From positions 44,516,001 to 44,580,000 of the forward strand of contig CM060733.1 in the NCBI GenBank assembly GCA_030704615.1: a stretch of 64,000 nt of DNA, written 5' to 3'. The DNA is from Takakia lepidozioides. Its lineage: Eukaryota > Plantae > Bryophyta. Each line of letters begins with the position of its first letter. The first letter of the stretch is position 1. Made by a program: the position numbers and the translations under genes. This document shows, in pieces, positions 6,910 to 29,510 of this stretch. Under the pieces are notes generated by a model, which worked only from the letters and a program-made list of their open reading frames with translations, was not told the DNA's origin and did no database searches.

Positions 6910-9364
6910 TGTTGCCAATTCGCGATTGTGCTCATCTTCTGTGCATATACTTTCCTCAGGCAAGCAAGAAGAAGATTTGTCATGTAAACGTGCTGCTGAG
7001 AGTTCTCACGCACAGGTTCTGGGCTTCCATGTATTGTGGGTCCACTGGACACTTTCTGGTTGCTCAAAACTCTCATGTGTTGCTATTCCAGTGGGGTGCA
7101 ATTCTTCTGAAGGGATTTGTTCAAGTGTATCTCTTTCGTATGGATATGTAAAAGCAACACAAGAGGAAAAGTGCTGTCTGCAAGCTATTCCCTGATACCA
7201 TGATTCTCAATCTCTGATCCCAAAATGCTCAGCAACAACAGGCAACTTTTGCTTTTAGAAGTTGGTCCCTCAAAGGCCATTTGACTGTGTGTAGATGATG
7301 AGTGTGAAGGTGGTAAGTTGATGACAGTCCATATAAAATTCCATGTGTAGAGATGTGGGAAGGAAGGTTGTGCAACTGGTGCAGTCCTCAGCGATGGCGA
7401 TATGCCACAATAACCGCCCTCCCAATCTACAGACCCCACTGCTGCTGCCCTGCCATTGTGCAGGCACAAGAAAACCTCAGGAGTCTCTATCTTCTCCTGC
7501 TGAGAGGTCACAGAGATGCAATTGATACTGGATGGAATATTACCCATTCCGTGGACTGCATGCAAACCCAGCTACTCCAGTAGCTCAGGAATCAACATCC
7601 AGGCTAAAAACACACTAGGTTCACAGGAAAGAAGATTTTCCAGACTGGCAAAACCCACTGCTTGCCCAATATAGCCTAGTTAGTATGCAAGGATTTCGGA
7701 ATTGAAATCACATCCTCAGCTGATATTCTCATCAGATAGTAACAATGTCCGTCCAAAACTCAAGCTGCACACTCCATGTTCCTAGACCTCACTATTGACT
7801 CTTGACCTTCTCTCATTCCCAGAGGTTGGGATCAGGCAGAAGATTACTTGGTTTCCATTTCTGATATCCATGGGGACTGCAAGCCTGGTGGTTGATTGCC
7901 CCTCCATACAGACCTGCATATGTGACAGAACCGACCATGATAGTATCTACCACTAGAATTGGGGATACCAGTTTTCTCCGCAGTCAGCTGCAAATTTCAG
8001 AGTGAGTTTTATGGTCAAGAAGGGAGTGGGGAGTGATGAACTATCAAATACTTCTATCCCAGTCACAGTTATCCCTTGGTGTGGCAACCCTTAATAATCT
8101 GACCCCTTTAATTCTGCCCTCCTATAGTCAAATTGGTACAATGGTTCAGGAAATAAAGTGCTAGAAAATATGTACATCCGTTGCATGTACTTGTGATATA
8201 TGTCAGATGTACTTCGCCGCCTGCCAATATATGGTGGCCTTCTTGCATGGTTTCAAATTCGGAAGTGCCGTAGAAATCTAATGCTAGTTCAATTTGGAGC
8301 AGTTCTTGCAGATTCGCCATAAATGTTGTGCTTCACGTATGCATCCACGTGTGTCGTACTGCCTGCCCTGTGCTTTGCATTTTGCCGTCATCGTCGCCAT
8401 GGGGTCATTCGGCATAAAGGGTTGTGTCGGAAATGATCTTGTGTTGCACACATCCGTGCGAGGTAACTCTTGGAGTGTCAGTGTTTGTGCTGTGCTCTTC
8501 TGGCACGGCACAACCTCATTACATTTGGGGTCTTCCTGTTTACTGCTCTCCAGGGTTGTTGCCGTCTTTCCATAAAGGATGTTTTCATGTCATGTTCAGG
8601 GTTTGTTTTTCATCCAAAAACAGCACGGCTTCTTGTGGCTTCCTGTATTTGAAAACAGTTTTTCTAGTTGGTGTCTCTCAGCGTGGTTGTCTGCGAAGTT
8701 CAGTGCATGTCATTCCTGCATCCTTTTGATGCATCACCCGCAGCCTTTGGGTTAGTGCTACCCTTGTTGACCTCAATTTTTTTGTGGTAGATCCCCTTTC
8801 GAGAATTGCGGGCTATCAGTTCGGGGATTCCGTTGTGAATCGAAAGTTTCGGTCAGAACACTTCTTTGTCTGTGTTTTGAGCAGTGGTGAGAACACTAAG
8901 TATCTTCAAGAGTCACATCTTCCTCTGCTGTTTTTATGTCGATCTGGAAAACCATTCTAGTGACACCTGCAAACTCCAGAGATCATCTTTTAAAGCAAAC
9001 AAGCGATCTTCTTTTATCATCTTTTATGCTTGGGCTTTGCTTATCTTTGTTTCGCACTTGCCCTTATCTCTGATAACATATTAACAATTACGGATACATG
9101 CTGCCTGCCTGCAGGGAAAACCGATACTGGCTGGGCCTGAATGTGCTGATGTGGTCATCCTACAACTTGAGACGATCAAATGCACCTTCTATAGCTTGAG
9201 CCTTCCAATCCCTTCATAGACTACTGCTGCATACCTCAAAGATGCCCTTTAACGGTGATCACATCATTCATTGCACAGTCCAACAACCTCAAAATCTAAG
9301 ATCTCTTTTTTTTTCACTTGGAAACTAGAGAAGACGCCAGTTTGCATGATGATGAAGAAAAAAA
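6910..9364. repeat. Dispersed duplicated segment, copy A, with about 700 bp of extra sequence at ~8150-8852
   Basis: Colinear high-identity match to 31784-33516 in the same orientation. The same spurious ORFs (e.g. ...LSGCSKLSCVAIPVGCNSSEGICSS...) appear in both places. Confidence 0.9.
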
Positions 9365-9554
9365 TGAACGAAACTGGCGGCCTTTCTCTTCTAAGAGATT
9401 CTTAATCTTCCAGAGATCTTATAAAGGCTCAGTTTTGTGTGGCTGGGGCAGGAGTGTATCTGGGGAGGAGATCTTCACAAAAGTGTTCTTTTTGCTCTCA
9501 TCCATCTCACTGATGTAGGTGTAGGTATACCCAATGGTTACCTTATGAGTAATG

Positions 9555-10092
9555 TGTCGTGCACCTAAGCATCGTGCCACAACATACATCATTGTCCACC
9601 ACACAATCTAAGCACACAATCCTAGAAAGCTATACCACAATGATAATGGAAGTGAACATAATGGAAACCCTCCACTCATGAATCCACTCAATCACATAAA
9701 CTAAGTCAAGCCAAGGGCACCCTTGCTAAGGGAATCCACCCTACAAAGCCCTCACCACACTCCCTCTCAATACCTAGAGCTATGGAGGTGAGAGAAGCTC
9801 ATGGAGGCTCAACTACAAGAAGATGAGCCTCCTCCATCCTCACAAGGGGAAAACCTATCCCCATGTCCCAAGTGAGGCTCGACACCTCATTTGGCATGTG
9901 AGACCAAATGAAGTCCCAACACACAAAATATAAATATAAATATCTAAAATGTCTTAGTTAACTAGAAGAAGGTAATTCTAGATAACCATGACTAAAACCA
10001 TGACAGCTGTCGTGCACCTAAGCATCGTGCCACAACATACATCGTTGTCCACCACACAATCTAAGCACACAATCCTAGAAAGCTATACCACA
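9555..10092 (-). repeat. 3' LTR of copy 1 (a-b-a structure, 85-bp terminal direct repeat), with PPT-like AGGGGGCGA on the minus strand at ~10094-10102
   Basis: TG...CA ends. Close match to 20197-20773. Purine tract immediately upstream on the minus strand. Confidence 0.8.
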
Positions 10093-10353
10093 ATCGCCCC
10101 CTAGCTGGTGATTAGGTCCTCTAACACCGGATAGCTGACAAGTATTCATCCCAATAAGATCATCGTTTGGTCATCAATCGCCCAAGTCCCAGTATCTGAA
10201 GGCAATAGATCAAAAGGCCGGGTGCAAAAGTAGCCCCATCGTTACTCGCCTTCCTGCAATCCATGGCTTCAATTGAGTGTCCATGGCATTGAACTCCCGT
10301 TAGCTAGACCTTGGATCACTTGTCAACCTCACCACTGTCATGCCCCACTACCT

Positions 10354-10505
10354 CTATCTAAGGCATCGTGGACACAACCATTCTCCACTAGGAACCTCCT
10401 CAAGTGGCGGTGTCAAGCATCCCATGTGCCCACCCCTTGAGCATTTGTCACACACCAACATGGTCGCGGCACCACCAGCATGCCCACATAGCATGCAACG
10501 CAACC
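10354..10505 (-). other. PHD finger at the integrase C-terminus, copy 1
   Basis: RCMLCGHAGGAATMLVCDKCSRGGHMGCLTPPLEEVPSGEWLCPRC is C4-H-C3 with the PHD-typical CLxPPLxxVPxGxWxCPxC. Confidence 0.93.
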
Positions 10506-13500
10506 CTGCAGGTACCACTGCAAGGTTGGGATCTATCCTCCCATCCACATGTGGAAGGTGACATGGCGCACAATTGCGCACATGGTCCTTCCATACCATG
10601 CCATCTCGACCCTCCAGAATCAACACTCCTGAAGACAACACCTCCCGGACCCTTAGAATCACACAACTTGTTGTGACATCCAAGGTCGTAGGCGCTGTCT
10701 GCTGCAGATACACATAGTCCCCAGGATGGAAACGCCGAACACCTGGCCGATATCCCCCTCCACGTATAGTGGCGTACCTCAATGTGTCTCGGTGTTGGGC
10801 AATAGCAAGGTTTTCAAAAGCCATAGGCATGACTCTCTTGAACAACTCTGCCTGCTGGGCACATGCTTGTGTCCACACATCCGGATCATCAAGGTTGAGG
10901 ACTACTGCAGTCTCCCTGCGAATAGATGCAGGCAAATCTGGCTCTCGGCCAAAGAGAAGGAAATAAGGCGAGAACGAGGCAAGTGATGCTTGCTTGCTAA
11001 ACCTGTAGCCCATGGCCAACCAAGGTAGCTGAAGGTCCCAATCTCCCAAGTGTCCCTTCTGCAAGCCATACTTGCGCAAGCCTCGTTTGACTGTTTGCAC
11101 AACCCTCTCGGCCAAGCCATCAGCCTCGGGATGATCCCGAGAAGTAGTGCGGTGATCTATCAAGGCTTGCTCACAAAGCCTGAAACTCCCCAAGAACTCT
11201 CTCCCCTGGTCCGTGAGTACCTCGGCTGGAGCACCAAATTGGCTAAGCACTCGATCTAAGAATGCATACGCAGCCCCCTCACTTGCCTTGTCAGGCAATG
11301 CCACCAGTTCAATCCATTTGGAGAAATGTTCCACCATCACCAGCACATACTTGTTATGGCGAATCGTCAGTGACAATGGGCCTGCGAAGTCAAGACTCCA
11401 ACGATAGCCCAAACCCATAATGGTAAAGGATGCAATTGTGGAGTAGGTGCATTGAAAGAAGCCCGCACTCTATCACACACCATGCACCTTGCCACTAACT
11501 GTTGCACATCCGTGTGCATGCCCCGCCACCAATACTGTCTTTGCAGCAAACTATGAGTGCGCCGCACCCCAAAATGTCCCAACTCCTCATGGGCATGACG
11601 TACCAATCGCGCTCGTTGTGTTGGATGAGGCACAATCCTCACTCGTCCATCCTCCCATACTCGGAGTAGATGAGTCCCCTCCCACTTGAACCTCTTGGCT
11701 CGTTGTAGGATCCGATCTCTCTCCTTAGCAGTCACACTGGCTGCTGTCTCTCCAGTACGAAGGTAGGCCAACACTGCTGCATCTTCATGTACATCCTTAG
11801 CACCACCAAGCTCCTCACTGATCTCTGGATCGTCATGCACACTATCTCTATGACCAATCACATGGGATGGACCAGCTTGAGCTCCCATTGCTAGAATGCA
11901 TAAAAAGGCAGATGTGTGCCATCCTGGCACCATCTCCTCGTCCGTCTCACCATGCCAACGAGCTCATGTATCATCAAGCTCACTTGTGCATGGATTGCGA
12001 CTCAATCCATCCGCATCCCGGTTGACTATTCCGGCTCGATGCACCACCTGGAAGTCGTACTCTTGAAGTGCCCACCGTGCAAGCTTCCCTGTAAGCTTGT
12101 CTGACTCCATCAACCACTTCAATGGTTGGTGATCCGTGACAAGGGTGAAGAGATTGCCATAGAGGTAGCATCTAAAATGTGTCACTGCCCATACTGCAGC
12201 TAGACACTCCCCTTCATAGGAACTATACTTCGCCTCGGCATCATTGTTCGAGCGGCTAGCATATGCCACTACGAACTCTCTCCCTCATCATCCACTGTGT
12301 GAGCACTGCTCCAATCCCCAGCATACTCCAATCCGTATGTAGCTGGAAAGACCGCCCCGAATAGGCCGCCTCAGAATAGGCGCAGAAGTCAATCGAGCCT
12401 TGAGTTCCTCAAAGGCTTCCTCCTGCTCCTCCTCCCACTGCCACTCCTGACCCACCTTGGTCAACTTGGTAAGAGCCTTTGCAATGCTGCTAAATCCCTT
12501 GACAAACCGTCGATAGTAGTTTGTCAACCCCATGAAAGCACGAAGAAAACACAATGGGGCGTGGAATGCGTGCAATGGCCTCCACCTTCGTCTTTTGAAC
12601 ACCCAATCCTCCAGGGTATATCATGTGGCCCAGATACTCAATCTGGTTGTGGAAGAACTTGCACTTCCCAGGTGCAATTTCAACCCATGCGCTCTCAAGC
12701 GCTCAAACACCATCTGAAGGTGTTCTCGTGCTCCTCAATCGTAGCACTAAAGATGATGATGTCATCAATGTAGCACCGGGCGAAGTCTAGCCCCGCAAGA
12801 ATCCTATCCATGACCCTCTGAAACTCTGCAGGAGCATTCTTCAACCCAAACGGTAGGAACCGCCATTGGTACAAGCAATCCTTCCATGTTGGTCAATCCC
12901 CCAGAATGTCGTCTTTTGCTTGTCAGCCTCTTTGATTGGCAACTGGTGGTAACCGGATCGCAAGTCCAATGTGCTAAACACCTTTGCATGCCCAATGGCA
13001 TCAAAGATCTCCTCTGGAGTTGGCATGGCATATCTATCGGACTTAGTCTGACGGTTCACAGGACGGTAGTCCCACACATCCTCCTTTCTGTCCAATTGCC
13101 ATATATCCTTCTTAGCTGGCATCACCGTTGCCGAGGCATACTCCCCGCCTGACAACTCCACCAATCCAGCTTCGAACAACTCCATAGTCCGTGACTGGAT
13201 CAAAGACCTCTCCATATCACTATACCTGTAGGGCCTTCGAAAAATTGGCGTGTCACTTGCCAAATCAATACGAATCTCCTGGCCCTTCAAACTCCCCAAA
13301 TCCTTCAAACCGAAGGCAAAGCAATTTCTATAAGCCCTTAGAAATCGCTGGATCCTCCGCCTCTCTCCTCCGGTGACTGTAGGTCCAACATCTGGTTCCC
13401 AGTTGTCCTCAGTGACTGCAACCTTGGGTACACCAGGCTTGGAGGTAGGAGACGCATCCTTTGGTTGCTAGATAGCAACCTCTTGGGCCTTGTCCGCCCA

Positions 13501-13749
13501 CCCTGACTGTGGCGTAGCCTCCACTTGCTCCGCCATAGCCACCTTGAGAACATCCTCTGGGGAAGAAACATCTTCAACCTCTTCAAAAACCTTAGCCACC
13601 TTGGCCTCCAACTGATCCTCAGTGTATGGCTCTCCCCACTCCTCATACTATTGCTTGAGAGATCCGTCTCGGTTGGCAGAGAGGGTGCAATATCCAATGG
13701 GAGAGCGGAAGTAGCCACCAATGCTTGCAATCTCCATTGCTCAGCCATA

Positions 13750-14670
13750 CACAAGCCATGACCCATGTCAAGCAATTGAGATCAATTGCCTGACCCAACA
13801 CCTGGCGTCGTGATGCCTCTGACAGAGCTGGCACAGCTGTAGTGCCCGTGGCAAATCCCATTGCCCGCTCTCGCTCATCCGCATTGGGCTCCACCAATTG
13901 CTGTAGCACACTGTCCCAAATCAACCCAGGACCATTGTCTCAAAAAGCATGAGACGAGGGAAAGCTCATGAGCGTAGGCAAGGCTGCACGTGGCTGCCCC
14001 ACTCGATTGACCACCGCCAAAGATGGACGATCATCATGTCGCACTCTCTGTGGTTGCCTCCCTTGGTCCAAAATGCCCTCAACCGTGAGGTTGGGTGGCC
14101 GTTGAATGGAATCATAGGCTCTCTTGAGCAACTCTGGTGGTGCAAGATTGGTCCACCACAACCTAGGCCTATGTGCCCGTGAACCCACTGCAGCTGCATC
14201 CAATAATACAGCTGGTCCAATCCATGACCGGATCTGATGTACACTGGCCATAACCCTGGCTCGAGAATCCCCCATGAGAGGAACATTCTCCAGGATGTAA
14301 GCTGGAGGTTGCACTTGCCTCACTGCAAGTCACGCAACACTCGCACATCTCCCAAAACAATGCGATCGTGCATCATGCAAACCATTACCATGACCTGCGG
14401 GTGAATGTCCTTGGCAAGGCCATCCAGCTATCACCAAGTCAATGGCACCATGCTGGTCCAAATCATCCGCCTCCAGCAAGGTAATGTCTGCTGGCAAGGC
14501 CTTTTGGTACCCTTGAATTGCTGAGAGAGGCAACAACTCAGGATACATGGCGCATGGAAACACGCCGAGCAATCTCATCCTTCTCCACTACTTGCGTACT
14601 TTGATTCCTGCTTGCAACACTCCTGCAAGCCCAGTGCTCATGCCTCCAAACAGGTCTAGCAAAAATGCTG
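13750..14670 (-). pseudogene. DNMT3-like C5 cytosine methyltransferase domain within pol, copy 1 (frameshifted)
   Basis: Motif I LLDLFGGMSTGL (~14625-14665), motif IV DLVIAGWPCQG, motif VI YILENV, motif VIII AAAVGSRAHRPRLWWTNL, motifs IX/X ERERAMGF...RRQVLGQAIDL. Confidence 0.9.
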
Positions 14671-17600
14671 AGTCAGGTTGTTGCCAGATAATAGGCACTG
14701 TCCAATGGAGCTAATTGAGGAGGTCCAGGTGATGTAACTGAACTCCCCTCACCTACCGATGGGAAGGCCTCCTGCCATGCTTGTTGCACACACTGGCTTG
14801 CCACTCGCTGCAAATCCCCAACTGTATTCCATAGTGAGCTATGCACAGGAACATGAGGAAGCAACTCAGCCTTGTATGCCAATTTCTTATCCTCATCAAG
14901 TGGTGGCCTATCATCTGCATGGTGATTGCCCTTCCAAGCGCTAACCACCCCAAGCCACCCACCTTGAGAATGCAGCCAATGTGGGCATCATTATTCCTAT
15001 GATCACCGCTACATTCCAATAAACCGCACTGGGAATAGTGCACGTCGACCATCCCTGACGCCATTCCGGCCTGTAGGATGTCGTTTCCGCCCAAAAGTCC
15101 AAAGTAAAGCCCATGGGTACAACACAGCCCCACCAACAAGCACATCATAGGACATCGCGTCCGTAACATGGCTTTAGTTCATGACTGAGCGTCGTAAGAT
15201 GATCCGGCTTGCAATCGAATTTAAGAGAGCTCATGGCGTGAAATCCTCGCGTCTTTTCTGACACACCCAAAGATGTTGAATTTGGAAAGGGCAAGGCTCC
15301 AATCCGCCTCTATAAGGCCCAAGCCTGCAAATTGCTGCTCTCCCCAACATCAATGGCTGGCTCCTGAGTCCAACAAGACCCGCGTGGCCTATACCTCCTC
15401 CCGGTGGCCCACCCAATTGACAACACTCCATCCTGATTGTCCACCGGACTACCCCAGAGTCACCATACTTGCGTTCAATGACTGGCCTAGCTAGCAATTC
15501 CTGCAACCTTCCAGTCTACCGCTGCCATGGCGTAGCTGTGGCTGTCTTCACCCTTGAATCCAGGGCATCTAATGCATTGCAACTAATCCGCTATCCCCGC
15601 AGATAGTCCAATGCATCACCACTCTAACAGAGTATAGTGCCAGTCTAAACACTGCAGCTGGCCACATCCGACATTGCCTTGTCGTGGCAGAAAACAATGG
15701 AGCTTGGTAATTGTCGTAGCCGCCCCAACAATGTATGGCCGCACCTTGCTTTGCCAGTACCACCCACTGCATTTCCCGAGCCATACCGGTTTGTCTCCCC
15801 AATGGCACTCGTGCTCACCTCTAATACAATGGGGGGAGCGGGTGCCATGATGGCATTAGTTGGCACGTCTCAGCCAATGTGAAAGACTGTGGAAGCCTTG
15901 TCTGCCGACTGGCTTCCCATCTTTGGGATCAAAATCCACATCTGTTCCTCTGGTTCAGGAGCAGCGTTGCTGCTCGGTGACAGAGCTGCAAAGTCCACAT
16001 GCAATGAGTCATGCAAGTGCGGCTCCACAGGGCTTGAACCTCAAGCCTTGGAGCTCGCGCAACATGAGTAGTGGCCATGGCAGCAGGACGTTGCTCTAGC
16101 TGGGCAAAGTCTATCCACCATGCCTTGGTATGACCTAGACCCTGACCTTGTGCTCCTTGGTTTTGGTTACGACCTCCACCCCGGCCTCTGCCTCCTCTAC
16201 CTCTCTGGACTACTGCCTCGTCCTCGGCCACCATTGTTCCTTGGAACTGGCCTGGCCATAGCTCAGGATGCAAGCCATAACAATGGGCCTCCTCATGCCC
16301 TACTTTCTTACAATGCCCACATTGTAGTTGTGTAGGCTGGGCCTTCGTGCCGACCCTTTGCCTCTCTCCGGGCAAATCTTTCCTTGACATGGGGCCCTCC
16401 AAATCCAACAAGTCACACCCAACTGTTGTTGGCCTGAGAATGAGAAAGAGACCTCTGCATCTGAGATCCTATTTGCCTTCCTTCGGCTCATCTGAGCCTC
16501 ATTGTTGCCTTGAACACGTTGGGATAGTGGTTGTTGTTGGCTAGAGCCCACTTTGTTGTGTCTCTTGCCAAACCCCACATAACCACTCGACCTCCACCAT
16601 ATTGAGCTCTTCCGCTCTGCCAGCAAAAACACATTTGCTAAGGTGGGTGGTCCACTTGTAGGAGAGTTTGCATCCCGCACCCTTCTCCTAAGCTCCTTGT
16701 CCAGGATCCCATACCAAAACTGACTGCCTGAGCTTCTGTAACCCATTGGGTCTTACGTTTATCAAGTGTCTCATGCGGGTGTAAGCCTCCCTCAAACTCT
16801 CAGTAGACCTTCGTTAGAACTCTTGCAAAGCTCCGCACACTTCTCTGTCATTATCCCTTGGTAGTTTCTCTCAACTCCTCGAAAGAACTCCACAACTGGG
16901 TTAAAGGCAGGAGGCACGGGTGTTGGGTGTGTTGCGAGCAGGAGCTTGAGTGGGATTTCCCAGCTATTGTTATACCACTTGTCCCACTACTAGTGCTTGC
17001 AGTTGGAGATGTTTGTATAGCTGATGGGTGTCGTCGTGCCCTTGTGCCTCTAGTGATGGAGACATAGGTAGGTGACTAATACTCTCGCCATGCTCATCTC
17101 CACCGCAGTCCCGCCTAAATCATGGTAATCATCCTGGGCGGCCCTCAAGGGGCTGGAATAGCCCCTTCCACGCCATAAAGGGCGTAAACAGTTGTGGATT
17201 CGGCATTGTTGCAAATCACACCAACTGTCAACTCTGTATGAAGTCATCAAGCTCGAGGTGCCCACAGCTCCAGAGTTACCTACGTGGCCCCCTTGGTAGG
17301 CTCATACATCTCCTCCATCGTATCCCAAAGAATGGCACGAAAAGACTTGCACCCTCGGCGAGGAATCCTCCCGACTCCGAGTCTGAACCTGTGACCTTCC
17401 TCAAGAAGACACTGAACGGTGAAGGTGGCCTAAACCGCACACCTCATCTTGTGTACCACTAGTATCGCTGGTGCTCGCATACGGCACTCCCATCAGCAAT
17501 TGGTGGCACCTCCGTGATGAACTCACAAACCAACGGTTGTCAACCTGTCTCTAATCCCCACTCTCTACAATGGTAAACCGGCACTAGTACATATTAACGT

Positions 17601-18179
17601 TTTTAGACTACGGGTGATATAAACCGTGGTAACCATGACTAATACGTGACTACATATGTGACGAAAACCATTGTTGGGCGAAATTTAATATATTTTAATC
17701 TAAACATATTACTACATGACTAGGAGCCGCGGCAAACGTGTTGCCAAGAACAGAGGCTTGGTTTATATAACTAGTAGTCATATGCACTATTACACGTAAA
17801 CAAGTGCTACATAAGCTTATGACTAAATGACTACACCATTACTACACATTGATGACATGCCATACAAGCTTATGACTACATGAGTACATGAGGTTTCACA
17901 GCTCTGTTTTAATGAATACACAACTACACGTGGCATCTTAAAGCATATACATGAAGGGTCATCAATCGGATGACCTCATCCATCTTATTCTAACGAAGCA
18001 CTTGTGTCCATTGGAATGACACAAAGTGCCAAAAAGTTAAAAAAATTCAAAAAGTTGCTTTAGGGTTGCCCACGTTGAGCCGTGAAACAGGGTTGGGACT
18101 TAGCCTCCTTTTGACGCCCGTGCTACGATCTGTTTTATTTTCGTAGTATCAAGCCGAAGCAGTGAGAACTTGTGTCATG

Positions 18180-19180
18180 AAACGCCATGATCGCATGATA
18201 TGCAATGCAGGGGCGTGGGATAGAGGCTTTGCGAGCAAATGATGCAGGAAGGGCGAGGATATGCAAAGGGGGGGCATGGTACATATAGGTTCGGAGAACG
18301 TATGAGCAAATAATGAGGGAAATGATGAAGCCGGGCCGGGTTGTGTTTGCAATGCGTGTGCGGGCCTGGCAGCCCTGGAAAAGGGTTAAAAGGTCCATGG
18401 TGCCATTGTCAAATTTGGAATGTACCAATGGTCATTCTGAACAATACCTAGTGGACATGTATGCCAAATGTGGCAGTATTGAGGATACAAACGGAGTGTT
18501 TGAGAATATGACTGAACGAGATATCGTGTCCTGGAGTGTGATGATCGATGGATAATCCCCAGCATGGAGGCCTTGGAGATCTATGAGCAAATGATGCAGG
18601 AAAGGTAAAGCCAGACCTGTCACATTCGTTTGTATATGCAATTCGTGTGTGCGAGCCTGGCAGCCCTGGAAAAGGGCAAAGGTGACATCATCAGAGCTGG
18701 AATTGTACCCGACATCATTATGAACATGCACTCGTGGACATGTATGCAAAATGTGGTGCATCGAGGATGAGAGGGAGTTTTTCAACAGTATGGTTAAACG
18801 AGATGTGGTGTTGTGGAACACGATGCTTGCGGGGTATGCACAACAAAGCCGCGGGAAGGAGGCTATGGAGACCTATGATCAAATGATGGCGGAAGGGGTG
18901 AAGTCATCACGTTTGATGGCATTGGAAATGCATGTGCAAGCCCTGGCAGCCCCTGAAACGGGCAAAGAGTCCATGGTGACTTGTTCATAGCAGGAATTGT
19001 ACCCGATGTCATTCTGACAGTCTCTCGTGGACATGTATGCAAAATGTGGGTGCATCGAGGATGCAAAGGGAGTGTTCAATAGTATGGTTGAACGAGATGT
19101 GGTGTCGTGGAGTGCGATGATTGCTGGATATGCACAACAAGGGCGCGGGATGGAGGCTTTGAAGACCTATGAGCACCTTC
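18180..19180 (+). pseudogene. Degenerate PLS-class PPR gene fragment
   Basis: Repeated LVDMYAKCGSIEDA..VF..M.ERD(I/V)VSWS.MI.GYAQQG.G.EAL motifs across frames, with stops and frameshifts. Similar to the intact gene at 47340-50012. Confidence 0.88.
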
Positions 19181-20196
19181 TTCAACACATTTCAGCCTGT
19201 TTTCCCTGTTATCAGAGTCGTCCTTAATTTTTAGGTTGAATTCTACAGCAACAGCAACACAACTGATAAAATCAGGCACTGGTAATCAATGCATTCACCA
19301 TTCATTGCACCTCCCCTTCTCACTTTTCCCCCTATTTTTTTTGCTCTTATCAGAATTGGCCCTAAATTTCTATGTTGAATTCTGCAAGTTAGCTGGTTAG
19401 TTTGGGTGGAGTATGGGGGAGATGTCAACCCTGATTTGACAGTTTTAGTGTATTATGATAGGATGTTCTTTATCTCAGAAGTGTATGTTTCTCTTGCACA
19501 CTTTGTCAGAATCACCTGGTCTGGGCTCTTGGCTCCTGTTAGTACCATGATTTGGTATGCTTCCTGATGTTTACAAGGTTCTTGGGAGAGTCAGCTTGTA
19601 GGTCTTAACAGACCGGTTTCAATCTGTGCCCGCTCAGCTGCACCGTGGTGGTTCTCACAAACCAATTCGACATTACCTGACTACAGACACAAGCAACACA
19701 CACAAGAGGTCCTCTTGGATTCACGGTCAGTCAAATCCTCCATGGGTCATGACACAAGGTTGAGGACAATGTGGTGAGGGAACCTTCTTCTGTCCACCTA
19801 TTTCAACCTGTTTTGCCCTCTCATCGGACTCGGCCCTGAGATGCATATTGAATGTTGTAAATTAGCTCGTTGGGTGGATCTGTGGTGGTTTGGGGTGACT
19901 TGACAAGTTTCTGCCGATGTGGCAGCACAAACAGCACACACGAGGTCATTTTGGGTTGATGGTCGGTTAAATCCTCCATGCGTCATGAACAAAGGTCAAG
20001 GACATTGTGGTGAACGCACCTTCTTCTTCAACCTTTTGGCGGTCTGTTTTGCACTCTCATCATTAGGGTTGGGGTATTTGCTGGAAGAACTTCACGCAGT
20101 CGGTGTCAGCTGAAGGACTGTCAGGCAGGGATAGCTGAAAGACTAGGGATAGAGGTCCAGATCCATCCAAGAGGACCGGGTTTCAAACATAAGATT

Positions 20197-20773
20197 TGTC
20201 GTGCACCTAAGCATCGTGCCACAACATACATCGCTGTCCACCACACAATCTAAGCACACAATCCTAGCAAGCTAAGAGATGAGAAATGAGAGAAGTAGAG
20301 GACAATGAAAGCTCTCAAAGCATGAAGCAATCACATGAAGAACAAGCCCTAGTCCTTCCAAGTGAAATCCACTCTATCACATAAACTAAGTCAAGCCAAG
20401 GGCACCTTTGCTAAAGGAATCCACCCTACAAAGCCCTCAACACACTCCCTCTCAATACCTAGAGCTATGGAGGTGAGAGAAGCTCATGGAGGCTCAACTA
20501 CAAGAAGATGAGCCTCCTCAACACTCACAAGGGGAAAACCTATCTCCATGTCTCAAGTGAGGCTCGACACCTCACTTGGCATGTGAGACCAAATGAAGTC
20601 CCAACACACAAAATATAAATATAAATATCTAAATGTCTAGTTAACTAGAAGTAGGTAATTCTAGATAACCATGACTAAAACCATGACAGCTGTCGTGCAC
20701 CTAAGCATCGTGCCACAACATACATCGTTGTCACCACACAATCTAAGCACACAATCCTAGAAAGCTTACCACA
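20197..20773 (-). repeat. 3' LTR of copy 2, same a-b-a structure, with PPT-like tract at ~20775-20785
   Basis: TGTCGTGCACCTAAGCATCGTGCC at 20197 and again at 20691. Homologous to 9555-10092. Confidence 0.8.
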
Positions 20774-21029
20774 ATCGCCCCCCTAGCTGGTGGTTAGGTC
20801 CCTCTAACTCCAGATAGCTACAAGATGTAATAGCCACAGCCGTACTAAGTCCTCCATCACTGTCCCTATTGTACTCAAACTCTATAGACCAAGAGGCCGG
20901 GTAAAGAGCAACCCCATCGTTAGTTGCCGTCTTGCAATCTGTGAACTTGAGTCAGGATCTCGTGTGTTGGTCTCCTAGTAGCTTGGCCTTGCATTTCTTG
21001 TTAGCCTTCCATGGTTGTATCCACTCCCA

Positions 21030-21180
21030 CTATCCAATGCAATGCGGACATAACCAATCCCCATCAGGAACCATCTCAAGAGGTGGAGTCAAGCATCCCA
21101 TATGCCAACCTCTAGAGCATTGATCACACACTAGCATGGTGGCTGCCCCTCTAGCAGACCCACACAACATGCACCTCAAA
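21030..21180 (-). other. PHD finger at the integrase C-terminus, copy 2
   Basis: RCMLCGSARGAATMLVCDQCSRGWHMGCLTPPLEMVPDGDWLCPHC (C4HC3). Confidence 0.93.
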
Positions 21181-24100
21181 CTTGCAGGTACCACTGCCAG
21201 GTTTGGGTCAACCCTTCCATCAACATTTGGAAGGTGACATGGCGCGCAATTACGCACATGGTCCTTCCAAATCATGCCATCCCGACCCTCCAAGATCATG
21301 ACTCCTGAGGGAACACCTCTCGAACCCTCAAAATAGTACGTCCTGCAGTCACATCCAAGGTCGTAGGAGCAGTCTGCTGCAGATAAACATAGTCACCAGG
21401 GTTGAATCTCCGAACCCCAGGACGATAGCCCCCACCACGTATGGTAGCTTACCTCAACGTATCACGATGTTATGCAATGGCAAGGTTCTCGAAAGCCATG
21501 GGCATGACTTTCTTGAACAACTCTGCACGCTGCTCACATGCACGTGCCCACACGTCCGGATCGTCAAGGTAAGAACTGTAGCAGCTTCTCTGCGAATGGA
21601 TGTAGGCAAATCCGGCTCTCAGCCAAAGAGAAGAAAGTATGGTGAGAAGGAGGCAAGTGATGCTTGCTTGCTGAACCTGTAGCCCATGGCTAACCAGGGT
21701 AACTGAAGTCCCAATCTCCTAGGTGTCCCTTCTGCAAGCCATACTTGCGCAAACCCCTCTTTACTGTCTGAACAATTCTCTCTGCCAAGCCATCGGCCTC
21801 AGGATGATCCCGAGAAGTGGTGCGGTGGTCTATCAAGGCCTTGTCACACCAAAGCCTGAAACTCCCCCAAGAACTCTCTCCCTTGGTCCGTGAGTACCTC
21901 AGCTGGAGCACCGAATCGGCTAAGCACACAATCCAAGAATGCATACGCAACTCCCTCACTAGCCTTATCAGGCAATGGAACCAATTCAATCCACTTGGAG
22001 AAGTGCTCCACCATCACCAACACGTACTTGTTGTGGCGCATGGTCAGTGGCAATGGCCCTGCGAAGTCAATACTCTACCTGTAGCCCAATCCCATGATCG
22101 GAAGAGGGTGCAATTGTGGAGTAGGGGCGTTGAATGAAGCACGCACCCTGTCACACACCATGCACCTAGCCACAAATTGTTGCACATCTGTGTGCATACC
22201 ACGCCACCAATACTGCCCCTGCAGTAGACTATGAGTGCGTCGCACCCCAAAATGCCCCAACTCCTCATGGGATGCCGCACTAACCGTGCCCGCTGTGTTG
22301 GGTGAGGCACAATCCTCACTCGACCATCCTCCCACACTCGGAGCAGGTGTGTCCCCTCCCACTTGAACCTCTTGGCTCGTTATAGGATCCGATCCCTCTC
22401 CTTGGCAGTCACAGTGGCTGCAGTGTCTCCAGTGCGGAGGTAGTCCAACACAACTGAATCCTCATGTATATCTTTGGCGCCACCTTGCTCATTGCTAGCC
22501 TCAGGGTCCTCAGACACTTGATCTACAGTCATCCCTGTTGCAGGTCCAACCTGGCCTTCCGCTGCCAAGATACACAGAAATGCAGATGCATGCCATCCGG
22601 GCACCATCTCCTCGTCCGTCTCACCATGCCACCGAGCTCCAGTGTCATCCTGCTGGCTCGTGCATGGATTGCGACTCAACCCATCTGCATTGCGATTGAC
22701 CAAACCCGGTCGATGCACCACCTGAAAGTCATACTCTTGAAGGATGAGTGCCCACTGTGCAAGCTTCCCCGTAAGCTTGTCTGACTCCATCAACCACTTG
22801 AGTGGTTGGTGATCCGTGACAAGGGTGAAGAGATTGCCGTGTAGATAGCACCTGAAGTGTGCCACGGCCCACACTGCAGCTAAGCATTCTCCCTCATATA
22901 AGCTATACTTAGACTCTTCAACGTTGTTCGAGCGGCTAGCATAAGCCACTACGAACTCTCTTCCCTCATCATCCACCTGTGTGAGCACCGCTCCAAGCCC
23001 CAGCATGCTCCAATCTGTATATAGCTGAAAGGACGCCCCCTGATAGGTCGTCTCAAGATGGGCGCCGAGGTCAACCTCGCCTTGAGCTCTTGAAAAGCTT
23101 GTTCTTGCTCATCTTCCCACTACCACTCCTGGTCCTCCTTGGTCAGCTTGGTTAGAGCCTTTGCAATGGCACTAAATCCCTTAACAAACCGTCTATAATA
23201 GTTTGCTAACCCCATGAAAGCTCGAACTCGGCTCACATTCGTGGGGTGTGGAACCTGTGCAATGGACTCTACCTTAGTTTGTTGTATCCCCAATCCTCCA
23301 ATGTGACCCAGATACTCAATCTGGTTGTGGAAAAACTTGCACTTTCCCGGATGTAACTTTAATCCGTGCACCCTCAAGCGCTCAAATACCCCCTGAAGGT
23401 GTCTCTCATGCTCTTCCACCGTAGCACTAAAGATGATGATGTCATCTATGTAGCACCGAGCAAACTCCACCCCGCTAGAATCATGTCCATGACTCCTGAA
23501 ACTCTCTGTGGAGCGTTCTTAAGCCCAAATGGTAAGAACCGCCACTGGTATAGGCAATCTTCCCGTGCTCATTGATCCCCAGAATGCCGTCTTTTGCTTA
23601 TCCGCCTCCTTGATCGGCAACTGGTGATATCCAGATCGTAAATCCAACATGCTAAAGACCTTGGCATGCCCAATGGCATCAAAGATCTCCTCTGGTGTTG
23701 GCATGGCATACCTATCGGACTTGGTCTGACGATTTACAGGCCGGTAATCACCGCACATACGTCTCTCCGTCCAATTGCCAAAGACATCCTTCTTGGCTGG
23801 CATCACTGTGGCTGAAGCATACTCTCCCCCAGATAGCTCCACCAAACCAGCCTCCCAAAGGTCATGAGTTCTCATCTGAATCAAGGACCTCTCCATGTCA
23901 CTGTATCTATAGGGTCTCCGAAAGATTGGCGTGTCAGTAGCCAATTCAATGCGAATCTCTTGACTCTTCAGTGCTCCTAAGTCCTTCAAACTGAAGGCAA
24001 AGCAGTTCCTATAAGCCCTCAAGAACCGCCGTATACGTCGTCTCTCTCCTCCGGTGACTATAGGTCCAACATCAGGCTCCCAGTTGTCCTGCGTGACTGC

Positions 24101-24439
24101 AACCTTGAGTCCAGCAGGCTTAGAGGTAGAAGACGCGTCCCGTGGTTGCTATGCTGCAACCTCTTGAGCAGTGACCACTGCCTCCTCTGTCAGTGACAAT
24201 GTCTCATCCTGCCCCATCATCCCATCCTTGAGGACCTCCTCAATCCGAGAAAAATCCCCAACCTGATCCATCACCGCCGCCTTGGCTGCCAACTCCTTCT
24301 GAACCTCGAGCACCTCCCATGTGTGCCATGGATGCGGCCTGCACCTCGTGGTCCTTACCTGCTCGCCCCCACTCACTGCCTGTACCGTCTCGGTAGGCAG
24401 GGAGACCATGAAGGGAAGTGTACTCCGTACTCTGCGCTG

Positions 24440-25400
24440 CTCAGCCATAGCCAAGCTGATAATCCAGGTCAAGCAATTGAGATCCATTGCTTGCCCCAAC
24501 ACCTGACGACGTGATGCCTCAGAAAGAGATGGCACCGCCGTGGTACCTGTGGTAAAACCCATCGCCCGCTCGCGCTCGTAGCATTGGGCTCCACTAATTG
24601 TTACAACTGGCTATCCCACAAGAGGCCAGGTCTACCATCCCGAAAAGCATGGGATCCTGGGAAGCTGAGCAGTGTAGGTAATGTTGCTCGTGGTTGACCC
24701 ACCCTGTTGACCACTGCCAAAGACGAACGGTCATTGTGTCTCATACGTTGAGACTGCCTCCATGTGTCCAAAATGCTATCCATTGTGAGGTGTGCTGGCC
24801 GCTGCACCCCATCAAATGCACGCTTGAGCAGTGCGGGTGGCATCAAGTTAGTCCACCATAGCCGTGGACGATGAGCCCATGACCCCACCGCAGCTGCATC
24901 CAGCAACACTGCTGACCCAAGCCACGACCGGACTTGATGCACACTGGCCATCACCCTGGCCTGAGAATTACCCATCAGTGGCACATTCTCCAAGATGTAT
25001 GCTGGAGATACAGCTTGATGAAGCTGCAAGTGGCGCAAAATCCGCACCATCTCCCAAAAAGACCCGTCCTCGAGTCTCGCAATCCATTGCTATGCCCGGC
25101 TGATGAATGCCCTTGGCAGGGCCAACCTGCCACTACCAGATCAATGGAGCCAACTCGCTCCAAATCCTGCGCCCCCAGCAACGAAATGTCTGCTGGCAAG
25201 GCTTGTTGGTATCCACGAACTGCAGACACTGGCAACAAATCAGGGTACTGCTGTACCAACTGAGCAACATGGCGTTGTGAGACGCGTCGTGCAGTCTCAT
25301 CCCTCTCCACATACAGGTAACGTCGAACTCGTACACTGCCTGCAGTACTGCAGCCAATCCAGTGCTGATCCCCCCAAACAAGTCCAGAAGGCATATGCCT
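24440..25400 (-). pseudogene. DNMT3-like C5 cytosine methyltransferase domain within pol, copy 2 (frameshifted)
   Basis: ICLLDLFGGISTGLAAVLQA (I), VRRYLYVERD (II), IDLVVAGWPCQGHS (IV, catalytic PC), YILENV (VI), AAAVGSWAHRPRLWWTNL (VIII), AMGFTTGTT...RRQVLGQAMDL (IX/X). Confidence 0.92.
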
Positions 25401-27924
25401 TCATCCGGGCACTGCCACACAGAGGTGTGGTGTCCAATGGCGACAACTGAGGTGGTCCTGGTGCAATCACCGCACTCTCCTCTTCTCCTGACGGTACGAA
25501 GGCCTCTACCCAGACTTGTTGTACCCGTCCATCAGCAGCCTGCTGCAAATCCTTGCTCGTACCCCATAATGGAGTGTGAGCAACCATGGCAGGCAACTCC
25601 GCCGTACCATGCATGTCATCCTGCTCTGCTGGAGGTGACACATCCTCTGCATGGGCATTGCCTTCCAGCAACTCTCCAGGCCAACTAATTGCAGCTGTAA
25701 AGGCGGCTAGTGTTGGCATCTTGCCCCGCTGGGCAGCCGCAATACCCCCAATGAATGTCATAGGGAGCTGTGCACAACGACCATCCCCTGACTGCCATCT
25801 AGGCCTGTAGGATGCTGACTCCTCCCAAAAGTCCAGGGTGAAGCCCATGGGATATAACACTGCCCCACCAACAAGGACATCGTAAGAGACCGCATCTGTC
25901 ACAATGGCCTTGGCTCGCATCACTGAGCCATCTACAGGATGATCTGGTTGTAGTCCAATGACCAACTCACGCCGTGTCATGCCCCGAGCATGCTCTGATC
26001 CTCCCAGAGATGTCTGTATCTGGAAATGACAAGGCTCCATATCCGCCTCCATGAGGCCCAAACCTGCAATAGCAGCTCTGCTCAATATCAGTGGCTGAGC
26101 TCCTGAGTCCAACAAGACCCGCAGTGGCCGATACTTCTTGCCTGCCGGTCCACTCAAAGTGAAAATGCCTCCCTGGTTGTACTTACTATGTCCGTTGGGT
26201 GATGTTTATTTTATCACACTAGGTACAGCAAAGAGACAGATGTAGGCATGGAGGACGTGTGACTGGGTTTCAGTGTCTGAAGCTGTGTTGTGGGCCGGGC
26301 ACACTGGGTGGGTCCGGACAATTCTCATTGACAATAACATGATGCTTAGGTAATTTATGACTCAATTAGAAGCAAGTGGGATACATGATCAAAGTAGGAG
26401 AGAAGTAGTTGATTTGGTAGGGAGGGGGCTCTGAGAGGAGGCGGTGTAGAGTAAAGGAAGTTGCAGAAAGAGTTTTGTTGACTGAGATTAGATTTGTCCT
26501 ATGTCGGCTCAGTATGTTGTTGGTTGGTGCTGCAATTATGGGACCCAGTGCAGCCTGCAACTGAAGAAGAGGACAGGGATGCTCATGAACAAGAGGACCG
26601 GGATGCTCATGGAAGTGCATGAAAGATGAAGTTTAAGCATATGGGAGACATCTAGCTTTTCAAAGGTAAGTCCTGCTTGTGTTCCACATCAAGACCTTTC
26701 ATGTGGGCATATTGTCTCCCTCTTGAAGAGAAGCTAGAGACAAAAAGAGAGACATTAACAGTTAAGAGTGGCAAAAAGAACTACACTCAATATGATTTGA
26801 GAAATATATCATTAGACAGAAAAATGTCCAAATACTTGAAAGTCTCTGGATTGCACCAATTACAATATAGATTGGAATATGTCTGTCTGGGAGGGGATGT
26901 GCTTGCCACAGCCGTTGGTGGACGCCTTTACTATGCAACTGCAGATGGGTAAGTCAGCCCATGAACTTACAAATGTGTGCCATCCTCTCTTTCTCTTTCT
27001 CTCTCTCTCTGACAATGTTTCTGAAAATGTTTCACAACGTTTGCAATTCTGTTCACCAACTTTGAAAATCTCTAGGCTGAGCCTGAAGCCCTTGCCGGGC
27101 ACCCCCACACACGGCAGATTGATGCTTGTGTAAGGGGCTTTCTAGAGGATATTTGGAAAGCCCAAACTAATTGGTTCTACCATGGTAAGCCCCGCCACTG
27201 GAGTGAGCCCCTCGCAAAGGTAGTGTCTGTTCCCTTCTGTTCCACTCAAATTGGGCATGGGGTCTATGGCCACAAGGCTACGGCAACAAACGACGTCTTT
27301 TGAGTACATTGCTCTCCTCAAAGAAGGCTTTAGCTGGGAGCATTGGATACATAAACGACCATACTGTCTATGATTAGGTATCAGATTGCTTCTGTAATCT
27401 TGCATGTTCCATCTACCCAGATAAACAACAGAGAAGTGCTTAGCACCTTATGAGACACTTTGCCTTTGTGCCTTGTTGGTGGCTCCAATTGTTTTTGGGT
27501 TTCTATGGCTCTCTAATTTGGTTTTTAGTGGTTCTACTGTTTTGCTGTACATATGCTTTTGGACTCTTTATCTTATATATGAACATGCTGCCATTTTACT
27601 ATGTTTTCTCTGGTCCATGGCTCAGAAATGGTCTTCAATTTGTCACAGGAATGCTGGATGAAGTCTTTTGAGTTTTTGTGGCAGGATGCTACACATGTGG
27701 CTTCTTGCACCAAGTAGGGACAAAATGGCAGCTAGCAGTTTTAAGAAGATGACATGTATTCAAGCCCATGAGGGTATCTCAAACAACTACCAATCTTTTC
27801 CTTCTCAGAAGCACCTTCCATGAATTAGATGGACTTGTCAATACTTAAATGATGAAACCCTGTAAGACTTTATTTACAACATGTACAATGGGTGAACGTA
27901 TATAGGATGAGAAGTTCCTATAAA

Positions 27925-29510
27925 AAGGGGGGGGGGGGGGGGACAAGAAACAAGAGAAGAAAACAAAAAGCTATAGTAAGCTACTCAGCTAGAGAAGAAA
28001 ACAAAAGCTATAGTAAGCTACTCAACCAGCAACGAAAACAGAAGCTATAGTAAGCTACTCAAGCAGAGTGACCCTCCTAGCCAACAGCCTGGAGGAGATC
28101 AGGCAAGGAGATAGACAAATTGTCAGGCATAAGCGGAAGATGAGATGACGCCGAGCTAGCCACATCAGCCCGATGCAAAATAGATATGGCTTGTGCTCTC
28201 TGCAAAAGCAGTTGAAACACGTTGTCGATAGTAGGCGACAAGGACGGAGGCATGTGGGATGCCAGTGGACCTGCTCTTGGCTGCATGATGTACATATGTC
28301 CGCAGGAAATCGTCGAAGTGCTGGTGCAATGAGCCAAATATCTCGACCGCCAGCGGAAGAAATCTGTCGGTGGGGTGACGATCGCTGTAGTCGCGCTCCT
28401 TGGCCTGAGCTGCTACAGTGGCTGCCGTGCCTGGTGTGGTAGCTGCGCAAGATAGCAGATCCACTCGAGTGGGGTCGGCGAGAACGACATCTGCTAGGGT
28501 ACGCAAACCATCTCTAGATAGGATGATGTCAACACGATGGCGTGTAGAGTGGGACGTGAGCGTGGGTCGTAGATATGGTTGCTCACGCAGTATATGATAT
28601 CCTGCCTCCCGAGCAATATATGCCACCGCATCGCGAACCATATCATGAGACGCAATGCGCTCACCACCGCATGGACAGCGGAGGAGATGGATGGCAAGGT
28701 CATCGATGGGCTGATGACAGACGCGGCGCTGAAGGCCCAATGCCGAAGGATGAGACAAACCAAGTTGAAGGCGGTCAGGCTCGATGCAACTCAGAAGAAG
28801 CACTTGAGAGCATGCCGGAAAAGGAATGACGGTGCACACGCTCGGAAATGGACTCCTGAAGATGGCGAGGCCTTGAGCAACCAACTGCTCAAATGGTGGT
28901 AGACATGCTCGCGCCGGTGTTGGAAGAAGATCTCGTGCAGAGCGGAGATGCTGCTGGAAGGGTAAAATGCCACTGTCGACATGTGCAACGACGTCTATAA
29001 GGATGTGACAATGGTCACAGAGAAATCGTGAAGCGAGGGCTGGCGCAACCAATGCCCAACTGCCAAGGAAAGCTGACGGGGCGGTAATGACAATAGACAA
29101 AAGACCCACACCACCGGAAGAGACAGGCAAGGTGGCTTGCTGTCATGCCCAAAGTCCCTGAGCACCCTCCACAGCTCCTGGTCCTAACAATCTCCCGAAG
29201 ATAGTCATCATGGTAGTATCAAACCCAGATAAGAGGTGTAGGAAATTTGGGCTGGGTGGAACGGTGCGCAAGAGATACGAGGGACGCTGAAGGAAACATT
29301 TGGTCAAGATTCCGTATGCTACCTGTACATCTCCGAATCTAGGAAGGAGATCAGCGTGGGTGACATCTTCCAAGAAGGACGTTGTGAACTGGATGGTGCC
29401 AAAAGGGACTCCCATGATTCTGAAGTGAGCAGGGAGGACAAAATCTGCAGGGAGACCGGACGGAGACCACACCGCAAATTTGCGAGGTTGCATTGAAAGG
29501 CCCATGGGTA
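27925..29510 (-). mobile_element. 5'-truncated non-LTR retrotransposon with restriction-like endonuclease (CRE-like)
   Basis: RT thumb region (MGVPFG...RPSYLLRTVPP, PVSSGGVGL), Zn-knuckle region CHQPIDDLAIHLLRCPCGGERIASHDMVRD, RLE core RVDIIL...LADVVLADP...AKERDY...FLPLAVEIFG. The 3' UTR has three copies of a ~27-bp repeat. Confidence 0.8.
27960..28064. repeat. Three copies of AAAACA(A/G)AAGCTATAGTAAGCTACTC at the 3' end of the non-LTR element
   Basis: Directly visible at ~27960, ~27998 and ~28035. Confidence 0.85.

Follow-up and report, generated by a model that had tools for sequence, protein, structure and literature searches.

What is a DNMT3-like DNA methyltransferase doing in a plant retrotransposon? 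The question is raised by a stretch of the Takakia lepidozioides genome (assembly GCA_030704615.1, CM060733.1:44,516,001-44,580,000; hereafter the window, 64,000 nt in full, to which all positions refer), where an earlier note, made from the sequence alone, had placed a Ty3/gypsy family with such an enzyme inside pol in a single span from 9555 to 26180. Both copies of the family do lie in that span, but they are two separate, damaged minus-strand elements, copy 1 from 9555 to approximately 17575 and copy 2 from 20197 to approximately 26200, with fragments of a pentatricopeptide repeat (PPR) gene between them. On balance, we favour the reading that these are dead copies of an abundant bryophyte Gypsy-type element, in which a frame encoding Gag, protease (PR) and methyltransferase (Gag-PR-DNMT) would end at a leaky UAG followed by reverse transcriptase, RNase H, integrase and a PHD finger (RT-RH-INT-PHD), and in which the methyltransferase would be made at the level of Gag and may well act on the element's own complementary DNA (cDNA).

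The motifs of a C5-cytosine methyltransferase lie on the minus (pol) strand of both copies, between the aspartic protease and RT, in the unpermuted order I-IV-VI-VIII-IX-X. In copy 1, LLDSGA of the protease (15376) is followed by LDLFGG (14659), GWPCQG (14425), ENV (14290), HRPRLWWTN (14173), ERAMGF (13870), RRQVLGQA (13810) and YIDD (12772); copy 2 has the same series at 26115, 25387, 25127, 24990, 24873, 24571, 24511 and 23452, with motif VIII reading WAHRPRLWWTN. Translated in a single frame, with X standing for stops, copy 1 matches PF00145 (E 1.4e-9, 38.3 bits, cut-off 22), and an unjoined natural fragment from each copy also scores above the cut-off. A profile of 28 family members ranked DNMT3A and DNMT3B top among solved structures (E 1.4e-21), with HhaI at 1.8e-8 and DRM2 (7l4h) at 1.4e-5. 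The predicted fold is that of an intact relative, locus L026 from a metagenome scan (the loci used here are the best 80 of at least 341 confirmed), the window copies being known by sequence only. The L026 domain was modelled with a pLDDT of 94.5 and found its best match in DNMT3A/B (Foldseek E 5.6e-19; VIA Z 28.8, root mean square deviation 2.7 over 273 residues), compared with Z 24.1 for HhaI. Residues G-W-P-C-Q, E-N-V and the arginines of motif VIII show little or no variation across the alignment of 28 rows. These data support the presence of a genuine C5-methyltransferase domain, unpermuted and DNMT3-like, within an element of Gypsy order, the likeness to DNMT3 being one of profile and fold ranking. 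The motif set, its order, the resemblance to DNMT3 and the PF00145 check thus all turned out as the earlier note had anticipated.

The domain is kept by purifying selection. The methyltransferase has a dN/dS of 0.12 between the window copies (250 codons, dS 1.3), alongside 0.055 for RT, 0.069 for RNase H and 0.079 for integrase, and mismatches in hand-picked in-frame blocks fall at codon positions 1/2/3 in numbers of 60/19/123; six pairs of diverged loci give 0.09-0.13. Identity between the copies is approximately 80% in the 3' 4.1 kb and approximately 70% in the protease-methyltransferase region. Copy 1 retains a gag remnant and copy 2 has none. Both are dead, as the frameshifts first noticed in them implied: chains of high-scoring segment pairs (HSPs) against intact relatives change frame approximately 10 + 7 times in copy 1 (approx. 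17) and 4 + 8 times in copy 2 (approx. 12). A nested fragment of a host gene was considered and rejected on the strength of the land-plant relatives, the dN/dS values and the trees of RT and methyltransferase. The copy 1 region is matched at 80% identity or more by 32,791 contigs in one DNA run, which indicates many related copies and is not a copy number; separately, the best DNA run contains 0.64 of copy 1's words.

The placement inside pol is not supported for this lineage. Instead, the methyltransferase ends the Gag-PR-DNMT frame at a conserved in-frame stop, TAG CAA CCA, found at the same place in both window copies though synonymous sites between them are near saturation. In copy 2 it follows motif X by approximately 116 codons, and in both copies it precedes the CFAF anchor of the RT linker by 49 codons; with this TAG between them, the methyltransferase and RT do not share an open frame. 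A stop is also present in 31 of 31 loci matching a junction probe (20 TAG CAA CCC, 10 TAA CAA CCC and 1 TAG CAA CTC), which we count as one Sphagnum-type lineage because they are mostly near-copies and group with a named Sphagnum protein. A second, distant lineage has TAG CAG TTA in L026 and L028 and TAG CAA TCA in L040. Of these, L026 is intact, with 1369 open codons that include the protease and the PF00145 domain, the TAG and, still in that frame, a further 1047 open codons that encode RT-RH-INT-PHD. The third lineage (L047-L080) is open, with no stop between methyltransferase and RT in 10 of 11 in-frame loci. To judge from the relatives' loci, a search for a continuous protease-methyltransferase-RT open reading frame (ORF) with paired long terminal repeats (LTRs), which the earlier note had proposed, would miss intact copies because of this stop and the split A-coding-B-A-B ends described below.

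The sequence around the stop points to readthrough. UAG followed by CAR-YYA, the criterion for readthrough of the tobacco mosaic virus (TMV) type, is matched exactly in both window copies, L026, L028 and L040, while CAR-YYA follows only 52 of the 29,387 stop triplets (0.18%) in these loci. In TMV, this hexamer alone directs readthrough (PMC2194720; here and below, papers are cited for the portions of their text available to us). No variant at 1% or more is listed at the nine stop-context positions among 261 (run X1), 152, 78 and 8 host-run contigs, in a listing where short contigs favour matches and three runs represent one sample; neighbouring positions 13455, 13459 and 13475 do vary. Random decay as the origin of the stop is rejected by its recurrence across loci, the absence of variants at the site and the rarity of CAR-YYA after stops. 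The first methionine of ORF2 falls inside RT, at codon 85 in both window copies and codon 117 in L026, so in these elements ORF2 cannot start independently with an intact RT. We are fairly confident that the conserved UAG is read through into RT-RH-INT-PHD.

Relatives occur in other land plants, an occurrence of which the earlier note named no example. The breadth of the family is given by two word-index protein searches and the metagenome scan. Land-plant names are attached to 20 of the 83 longer homologues (17 Marchantia, 1 Calypogeia and 2 Sphagnum; identity up to 64%); neither homologue list has a seed-plant or fern name, a weak negative for a word-index search. An unbroken Gag-PR-DNMT frame is present in five Marchantia models (1278-1281 aa); four of them keep all motifs tested and four end 98 residues after motif X. 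A profile search added Klebsormidium nitens KFL_009030040 and the chlorophytes Hariotina and Tetradesmus, together with a Chrzof-labelled model, which we take to be Chromochloris. With MT for methyltransferase, the domain orders among 163 distinct matches are RT-MT-INT-PHD in 75, PR-MT without RT in 38 and PR-MT-RT-INT in eight, including K. nitens, the rest being partial. Streptophytes have the domain ahead of RT. In the named chlorophytes (e.g. P0060, P0091, P0236 and P0282) it stands between RNase H and integrase, with a PHD finger, a position of which we found no mention in the available text of the literature consulted. One full RT-MT-INT-PHD protein (P0270) is labelled as a Minisyncoccia bacterial metagenome-assembled genome and is probably algal contamination. 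Viral contigs gave weak, generic methyltransferase matches at 17 loci (best E 3e-14), too short for trees.

Trees were built from 29 rows, with six long-branched or redundant rows left out and seven of 72 chlorophyte-type rows as the outgroup. The window elements, Marchantia, Sphagnum-type loci and L026/L040 form one clade (support 100/99 for RT and 97/96 for methyltransferase) among open-junction relatives; a larger, quick methyltransferase tree does not resolve the two stop-bearing sub-clades. The 22 PR-MT-RT rows stand apart from the seven RT-MT-INT rows (RT 100/99, methyltransferase 100/100), on an assumed root and with a single K. nitens model. Rooted on the chlorophyte type, KFL_009030040 groups with the window elements in the RT tree, and this methyltransferase-bearing protein is 45% identical to L026. 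As the chlorophyte type forms its own clade in both trees, the domain was either moved or captured twice.

This kind of element is already published, as KnitGypsy-Dnmt3 of K. nitens (de Mendoza et al. 2018, PMC5890265), and the window elements belong to it because the domain order is the same; the kinship with Klebsormidium elements to which the earlier note had pointed is favoured by this order (PR-MT-RT), the repeat layout and the trees. Both have an unpermuted DNMT3-like domain in a Gypsy-order polyprotein, A-coding-B-A-B repeats (PMC5890265, Fig. 4 legend) and purifying selection; KFL_009030040 reads PR-MT-RT-RH-INT, and the window elements have the PR-RT-RH-INT set with a DDE integrase. 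The KnitGypsy-Dnmt3 domain was described as lying within the Pol ORF and as acquired in the K. nitens lineage (PMC5890265). In contrast, the bryophyte elements have land-plant hosts and many copies, and their stop splits methyltransferase from RT, a junction that is open in the K. nitens model and in L047-L080. What is added here is the land-plant range (liverworts and peat mosses), the conserved stop and the switch of position in chlorophytes. Later texts name 'streptophytes (Gypsy-DNMT3)' apart from their own material, as something already on record (bioRxiv 10.64898/2026.05.21.726589), or cite Gypsy-DNMT3 under 'streptophytes', with land plants not named in the text available (PMC12344493), and the accessible parts of 10.1101/363937 and PMC10952607 describe neither land-plant elements nor the stop. 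Our literature search found no land-plant description and no report of a stop or readthrough, in a literature whose figures, some supplements, Repbase and subscription papers could show bryophyte sequences.

Other systems share parts of this design. An in-frame UAG with CAR-YYA separates a high-level from a low-level product in TMV, in gag-pol of murine leukaemia virus and in pol-env of SIRE1 (PMC2194720), whereas the bryophyte stop comes after protease and methyltransferase rather than after gag or pol, and the RNA beyond it showed no consistent significant structure in six junctions (z -0.4 to -2.9). Ogre and Bianca (Neumann et al. 2019, PMC6317226) also place GAG or GAG-PROT in ORF1 and the other domains in ORF2, but their ORFs are 172-274 bp apart, Ogre has an intron, the LTRs are paired, and a methyltransferase is not mentioned in the text available. 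SymbioDIRS-Dnmt3 (PMC5890265) combines a retrotransposon cytosine methyltransferase, with demonstrated CG activity, and the same split repeats, but integrates by a tyrosine recombinase, while EpiLTRs (bioRxiv 10.64898/2026.05.21.726589) also carry a retrotransposon DNMT, in their case DNMT4-related and accompanied by DAM and a chromodomain.

The ends of the element depart from the canonical Ty3/gypsy arrangement of paired LTRs: the whole element runs from TG to CA with 4-bp duplications, but its repeats are split. At the 3' end, a G run is followed by B (87 nt), the junction CACGACA-GC-TGTCATG, A (approx. 364 nt) and B again. Loci with both ends (L048, L051, L068 and L037) read A-coding-B-A-B, start with TGTCA and end with ACA; target duplications of 4 bp are exact in L048 and L037, have one mismatch in L068 and are absent from L051. 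The B-A junction word, which both window copies contain, recurs in 11 of 97 loci, and all three lineages are represented among these. B-A-B is retained in the window copies, whereas the 5' A is missing. In copy 1, no second A lies upstream of gag, and the leader, similar to that of the intact-ended loci, runs on to approximately 17575; CATT is present at both flanks of this copy and at the border of A and leader, and loss of the 5' A by microhomology would fit this arrangement. The internal B-A junction could serve as a template from which both ends of a linear cDNA are rebuilt before insertion by the DDE integrase. Troyka was rejected as an assignment, since it has CG...CG termini and a 3-bp duplication and is restricted to animals (PMC12440569), against TG...CA and 4 bp here. 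Split ends of this kind probably confuse LTR finders.

Several observations on the repeats stand beside this. Repeats B1 and B2 of copy 1 differ at one of 87 positions and so appear young, yet its coding region has approximately 17 frame switches; assembly indels in repeats or mobilization of a defective template could cause this contrast. The terminal repeats (9681-10094 versus 20366-20775) are approximately 97-100% identical between the copies and the coding regions 70-80%, which suggests repeat exchange between subfamilies. A 21-nt inverted match between the start of the leader and A is present in L037 and absent from window copy 1, L048 and L051; it could form a self-priming fold in the Sphagnum-type lineage. 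No complementarity between leader and 3' repeat was found in window copy 1. Unusual repeats are also a feature of REM1 from Chlamydomonas. REM1 and Gypsy-7a_cRei, likened here by description only, share a PHD finger in a green-lineage Gypsy polyprotein and LTR 'subparts', but a methyltransferase is not mentioned in the available text (PMC9940879).

How might such an element work? Most ribosomes would stop at the UAG and release Gag-PR-DNMT, while a smaller share would continue past it and so append RT-RH-INT-PHD. Because the methyltransferase closes the Gag-PR-DNMT frame, it would be made in Gag-level rather than RT/INT-level amounts. Possibly cut free by the protease and carried in particles at that level, it could methylate cDNA before or at integration, so that new copies would arrive already marked, and the PHD finger may steer integration. 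Intact relatives are likely to catalyse cytosine methylation. That the substrate is cDNA or the fresh insertion is plausible, though we give it slightly less than even weight. A wider scheme is doubtful at present: an old, green-plant-wide lineage whose members share a DDE integrase, a PHD finger, split ends and a DNMT3-like enzyme, the last placed ahead of RT in streptophytes and, in chlorophytes, between RNase H and integrase, in which the leaky bryophyte UAG would yield Gag-level enzyme active de novo on the element's own cDNA and, in trans, on the host genome, several Marchantia 'hypothetical genes' then being intact enzymes.

A number of points weigh against the readthrough-and-methylation reading and have to be set beside its rivals. 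As regards the stop, the 31 stop-bearing loci are largely near-copies, with dN/dS at 0.9-1.1 in three near-identical Sphagnum-type pairs, as expected of dead copies; the final base of the Sphagnum-type CAA CCC does not fit CAR-YYA, and the stop in Marchantia is inferred from the ends of gene models, the tree rows P0009 and P0025 being models that splice over the linker. Furthermore, Tca2 illustrates that an in-frame retrotransposon stop need not be a portable readthrough signal (PMC2194720). ORF2 might instead be reached by splicing over the stop, by re-initiation or from an internal transcript, with the methyltransferase still at Gag level. Splicing has a precedent in the partly spliced intron that lies after GAG-PROT and ahead of RT-RH-INT in Ogre (PMC6317226), and five land-plant gene models skip the junction (P0009, P0010, P0013, P0025 and P0053). 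However, four of the junction-skipping models leave the linker at four different places, as predictor artefacts would, and a single stop, rather than a spacer of 170-270 bp, parts two ORFs that otherwise adjoin in frame. Re-initiation could draw on the ATG that Sphagnum-type loci have two codons past the stop, and L028 and L040 also have early methionines, but the window copies and L026 have no methionine before RT. The 3' hexamer, moreover, keeps CAR-YY while the residues that it encodes vary (QP, QL, QS). We therefore regard these other routes to ORF2 as unlikely and retain readthrough.

The enzyme's activity can be questioned in the same way. The K. nitens Gypsy Dnmt3 domain gave no methylation in yeast, a result that its authors call inconclusive (PMC5890265), and ENV is replaced by EHV in K. 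nitens P0275. CpG observed/expected is 0.48 and 0.51 in the window copies against 0.44-0.59 in three host genes, so the copies bear no extra signature of self-methylation. A Gag-level dose also exceeds what one cDNA would need. These observations would suit a domain retained for some task other than catalysis, or for one that does not involve cDNA, e.g. binding element RNA or DNA, methylating RNA or interfering in trans with host silencing. We think this quite unlikely, given the conservation of the catalytic residues noted above and the de novo CG methylation shown for the Dnmt3 domains of Symbiodinium DIRS elements (PMC5890265). It is very improbable that the land-plant elements captured host DNMT3 independently of the algal ones or that the domain is a passenger fragment. 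The trees contain no host DNMT3, their deep nodes are weak and the identity between L026 and K. nitens is modest, but the K. nitens element shares the PR-MT-RT position and repeat layout (PMC5890265, Fig. 4 legend), the RT and methyltransferase trees are congruent and dN/dS is approximately 0.1.

The 2018 paper left open the role of retrotransposon methyltransferases, its Gypsy example being one from an alga, where copies are few and activity had not been detected (PMC5890265). Since the element is abundant in bryophytes and has natural intact ORFs in Marchantia polymorpha (e.g. Mp4g09160, Mp5g06330 and Mp5g06860), a genetic model with methylation mutants, that role becomes directly testable. 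A leaky stop would tune the dose of enzyme to the level of Gag, which constrains its possible role, and would add a readthrough site at a PR-DNMT/RT boundary. In annotations, such ORFs figure as hypothetical genes of the host, and counts of DNMTs can come out too high as a result. The features of the two copies are collected in table 1.

Table 1. Features of the two element copies (window positions).
Feature	Position	Strand	Basis
Copy 1, repeat B2, 87 nt, right end of element, ends ...CACGACA	9555..9641	-	86/87 identical to B1
Copy 1, repeat A2, starts TGTCATG	9642..10005	-	312/323 aligned positions identical to copy 2 A
Copy 1, 2-nt spacer in B-A junction CACGACA-GC-TGTCATG, palindrome-like end-to-end junction	10006..10007	-	word present in both copies
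Copy 1, repeat B1	10008..10094	-	repeat comparison
Copy 1, polypurine-tract-like G run directly before B1	10095..10103	-	putative function
Copy 1, ORF2 remnant: RT, RNase H, integrase (H2C2 + rve), PHD; approx. 7 frame switches	10354..13467	-	Pfam RVT_1, Integrase_H2C2, rve, PHD
Copy 1, C-terminal PHD finger	10363-10497	-	Pfam PHD, E 1.9e-11
Copy 1, in-frame stop TAG CAA CCA between methyltransferase frame and RT	13462..13470 (TAG 13470-13468)	-	sequence
Copy 1, DNMT3-like C5-cytosine methyltransferase, motifs I-X in canonical order, stops and compensating frameshifts	13754..14731	-	motifs, PF00145
Copy 1, aspartic protease region, LLDSGA at 15376	15018..15563	-	motif; weak protease Pfam match
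Copy 1, gag remnant, CX2CX4HX4C knuckle approx. 16321-16280	15830..17293	-	HSPs
Copy 2, repeat B2, shortened, ends ...CACGACA	20197..20273	-	repeat comparison
Copy 2, repeat A2, separated from B2 by approx. 80 nt of unrelated sequence	20366..20688	-	repeat comparison
Copy 2, repeat B1 and preceding G run	20691..20785	-	repeat comparison
Copy 2, ORF2 remnant RT-RNase H-integrase-PHD; approx. 8 frame switches	21030..24148	-	Pfam, HSPs
Copy 2, in-frame stop TAG CAA CCA, position as in copy 1	24143..24151 (TAG 24151-24149)	-	sequence
Copy 2, DNMT3-like methyltransferase domain, frameshifted	24440..25408	-	motifs, Pfam
Copy 2, protease and linker, at the 5' limit of the truncated element	25420..26205	-	motifs, Pfam

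An Rfam search of positions 9000-27500 gave no match. The PPR fragments between the copies (18200-19175, plus strand) are decayed, of PLS type and related to the intact DYW PPR gene at 47631-50012. The window presumably also holds a 14-3-3 gene, which, like the DYW type of the PPR gene, we recognized from characteristic motifs. Frames at 28165-29142 and 57926-58681 (both minus strand) have zinc-finger and endonuclease-like wording, which we take to be typical of the ends of non-LTR or Penelope-like elements; neither has a Pfam match at E 0.05. An intronless gene for the delta subunit of chloroplast ATP synthase lies at 5696-6682 (plus strand), with 63-67% identity to its best matches, the best named being Calypogeia (67%) and Sphagnum (66%); such divergence fits a deep-branching host, likely a land plant outside the seed plants. 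Another dispersed repeat, approximately 2 kb long and present at 6910-9364 and 31784-33516 (79-83% identical), adjoins the right end of copy 1, and a tandem array at 41801-43212 consists of five 278-nt units that are 99% identical.

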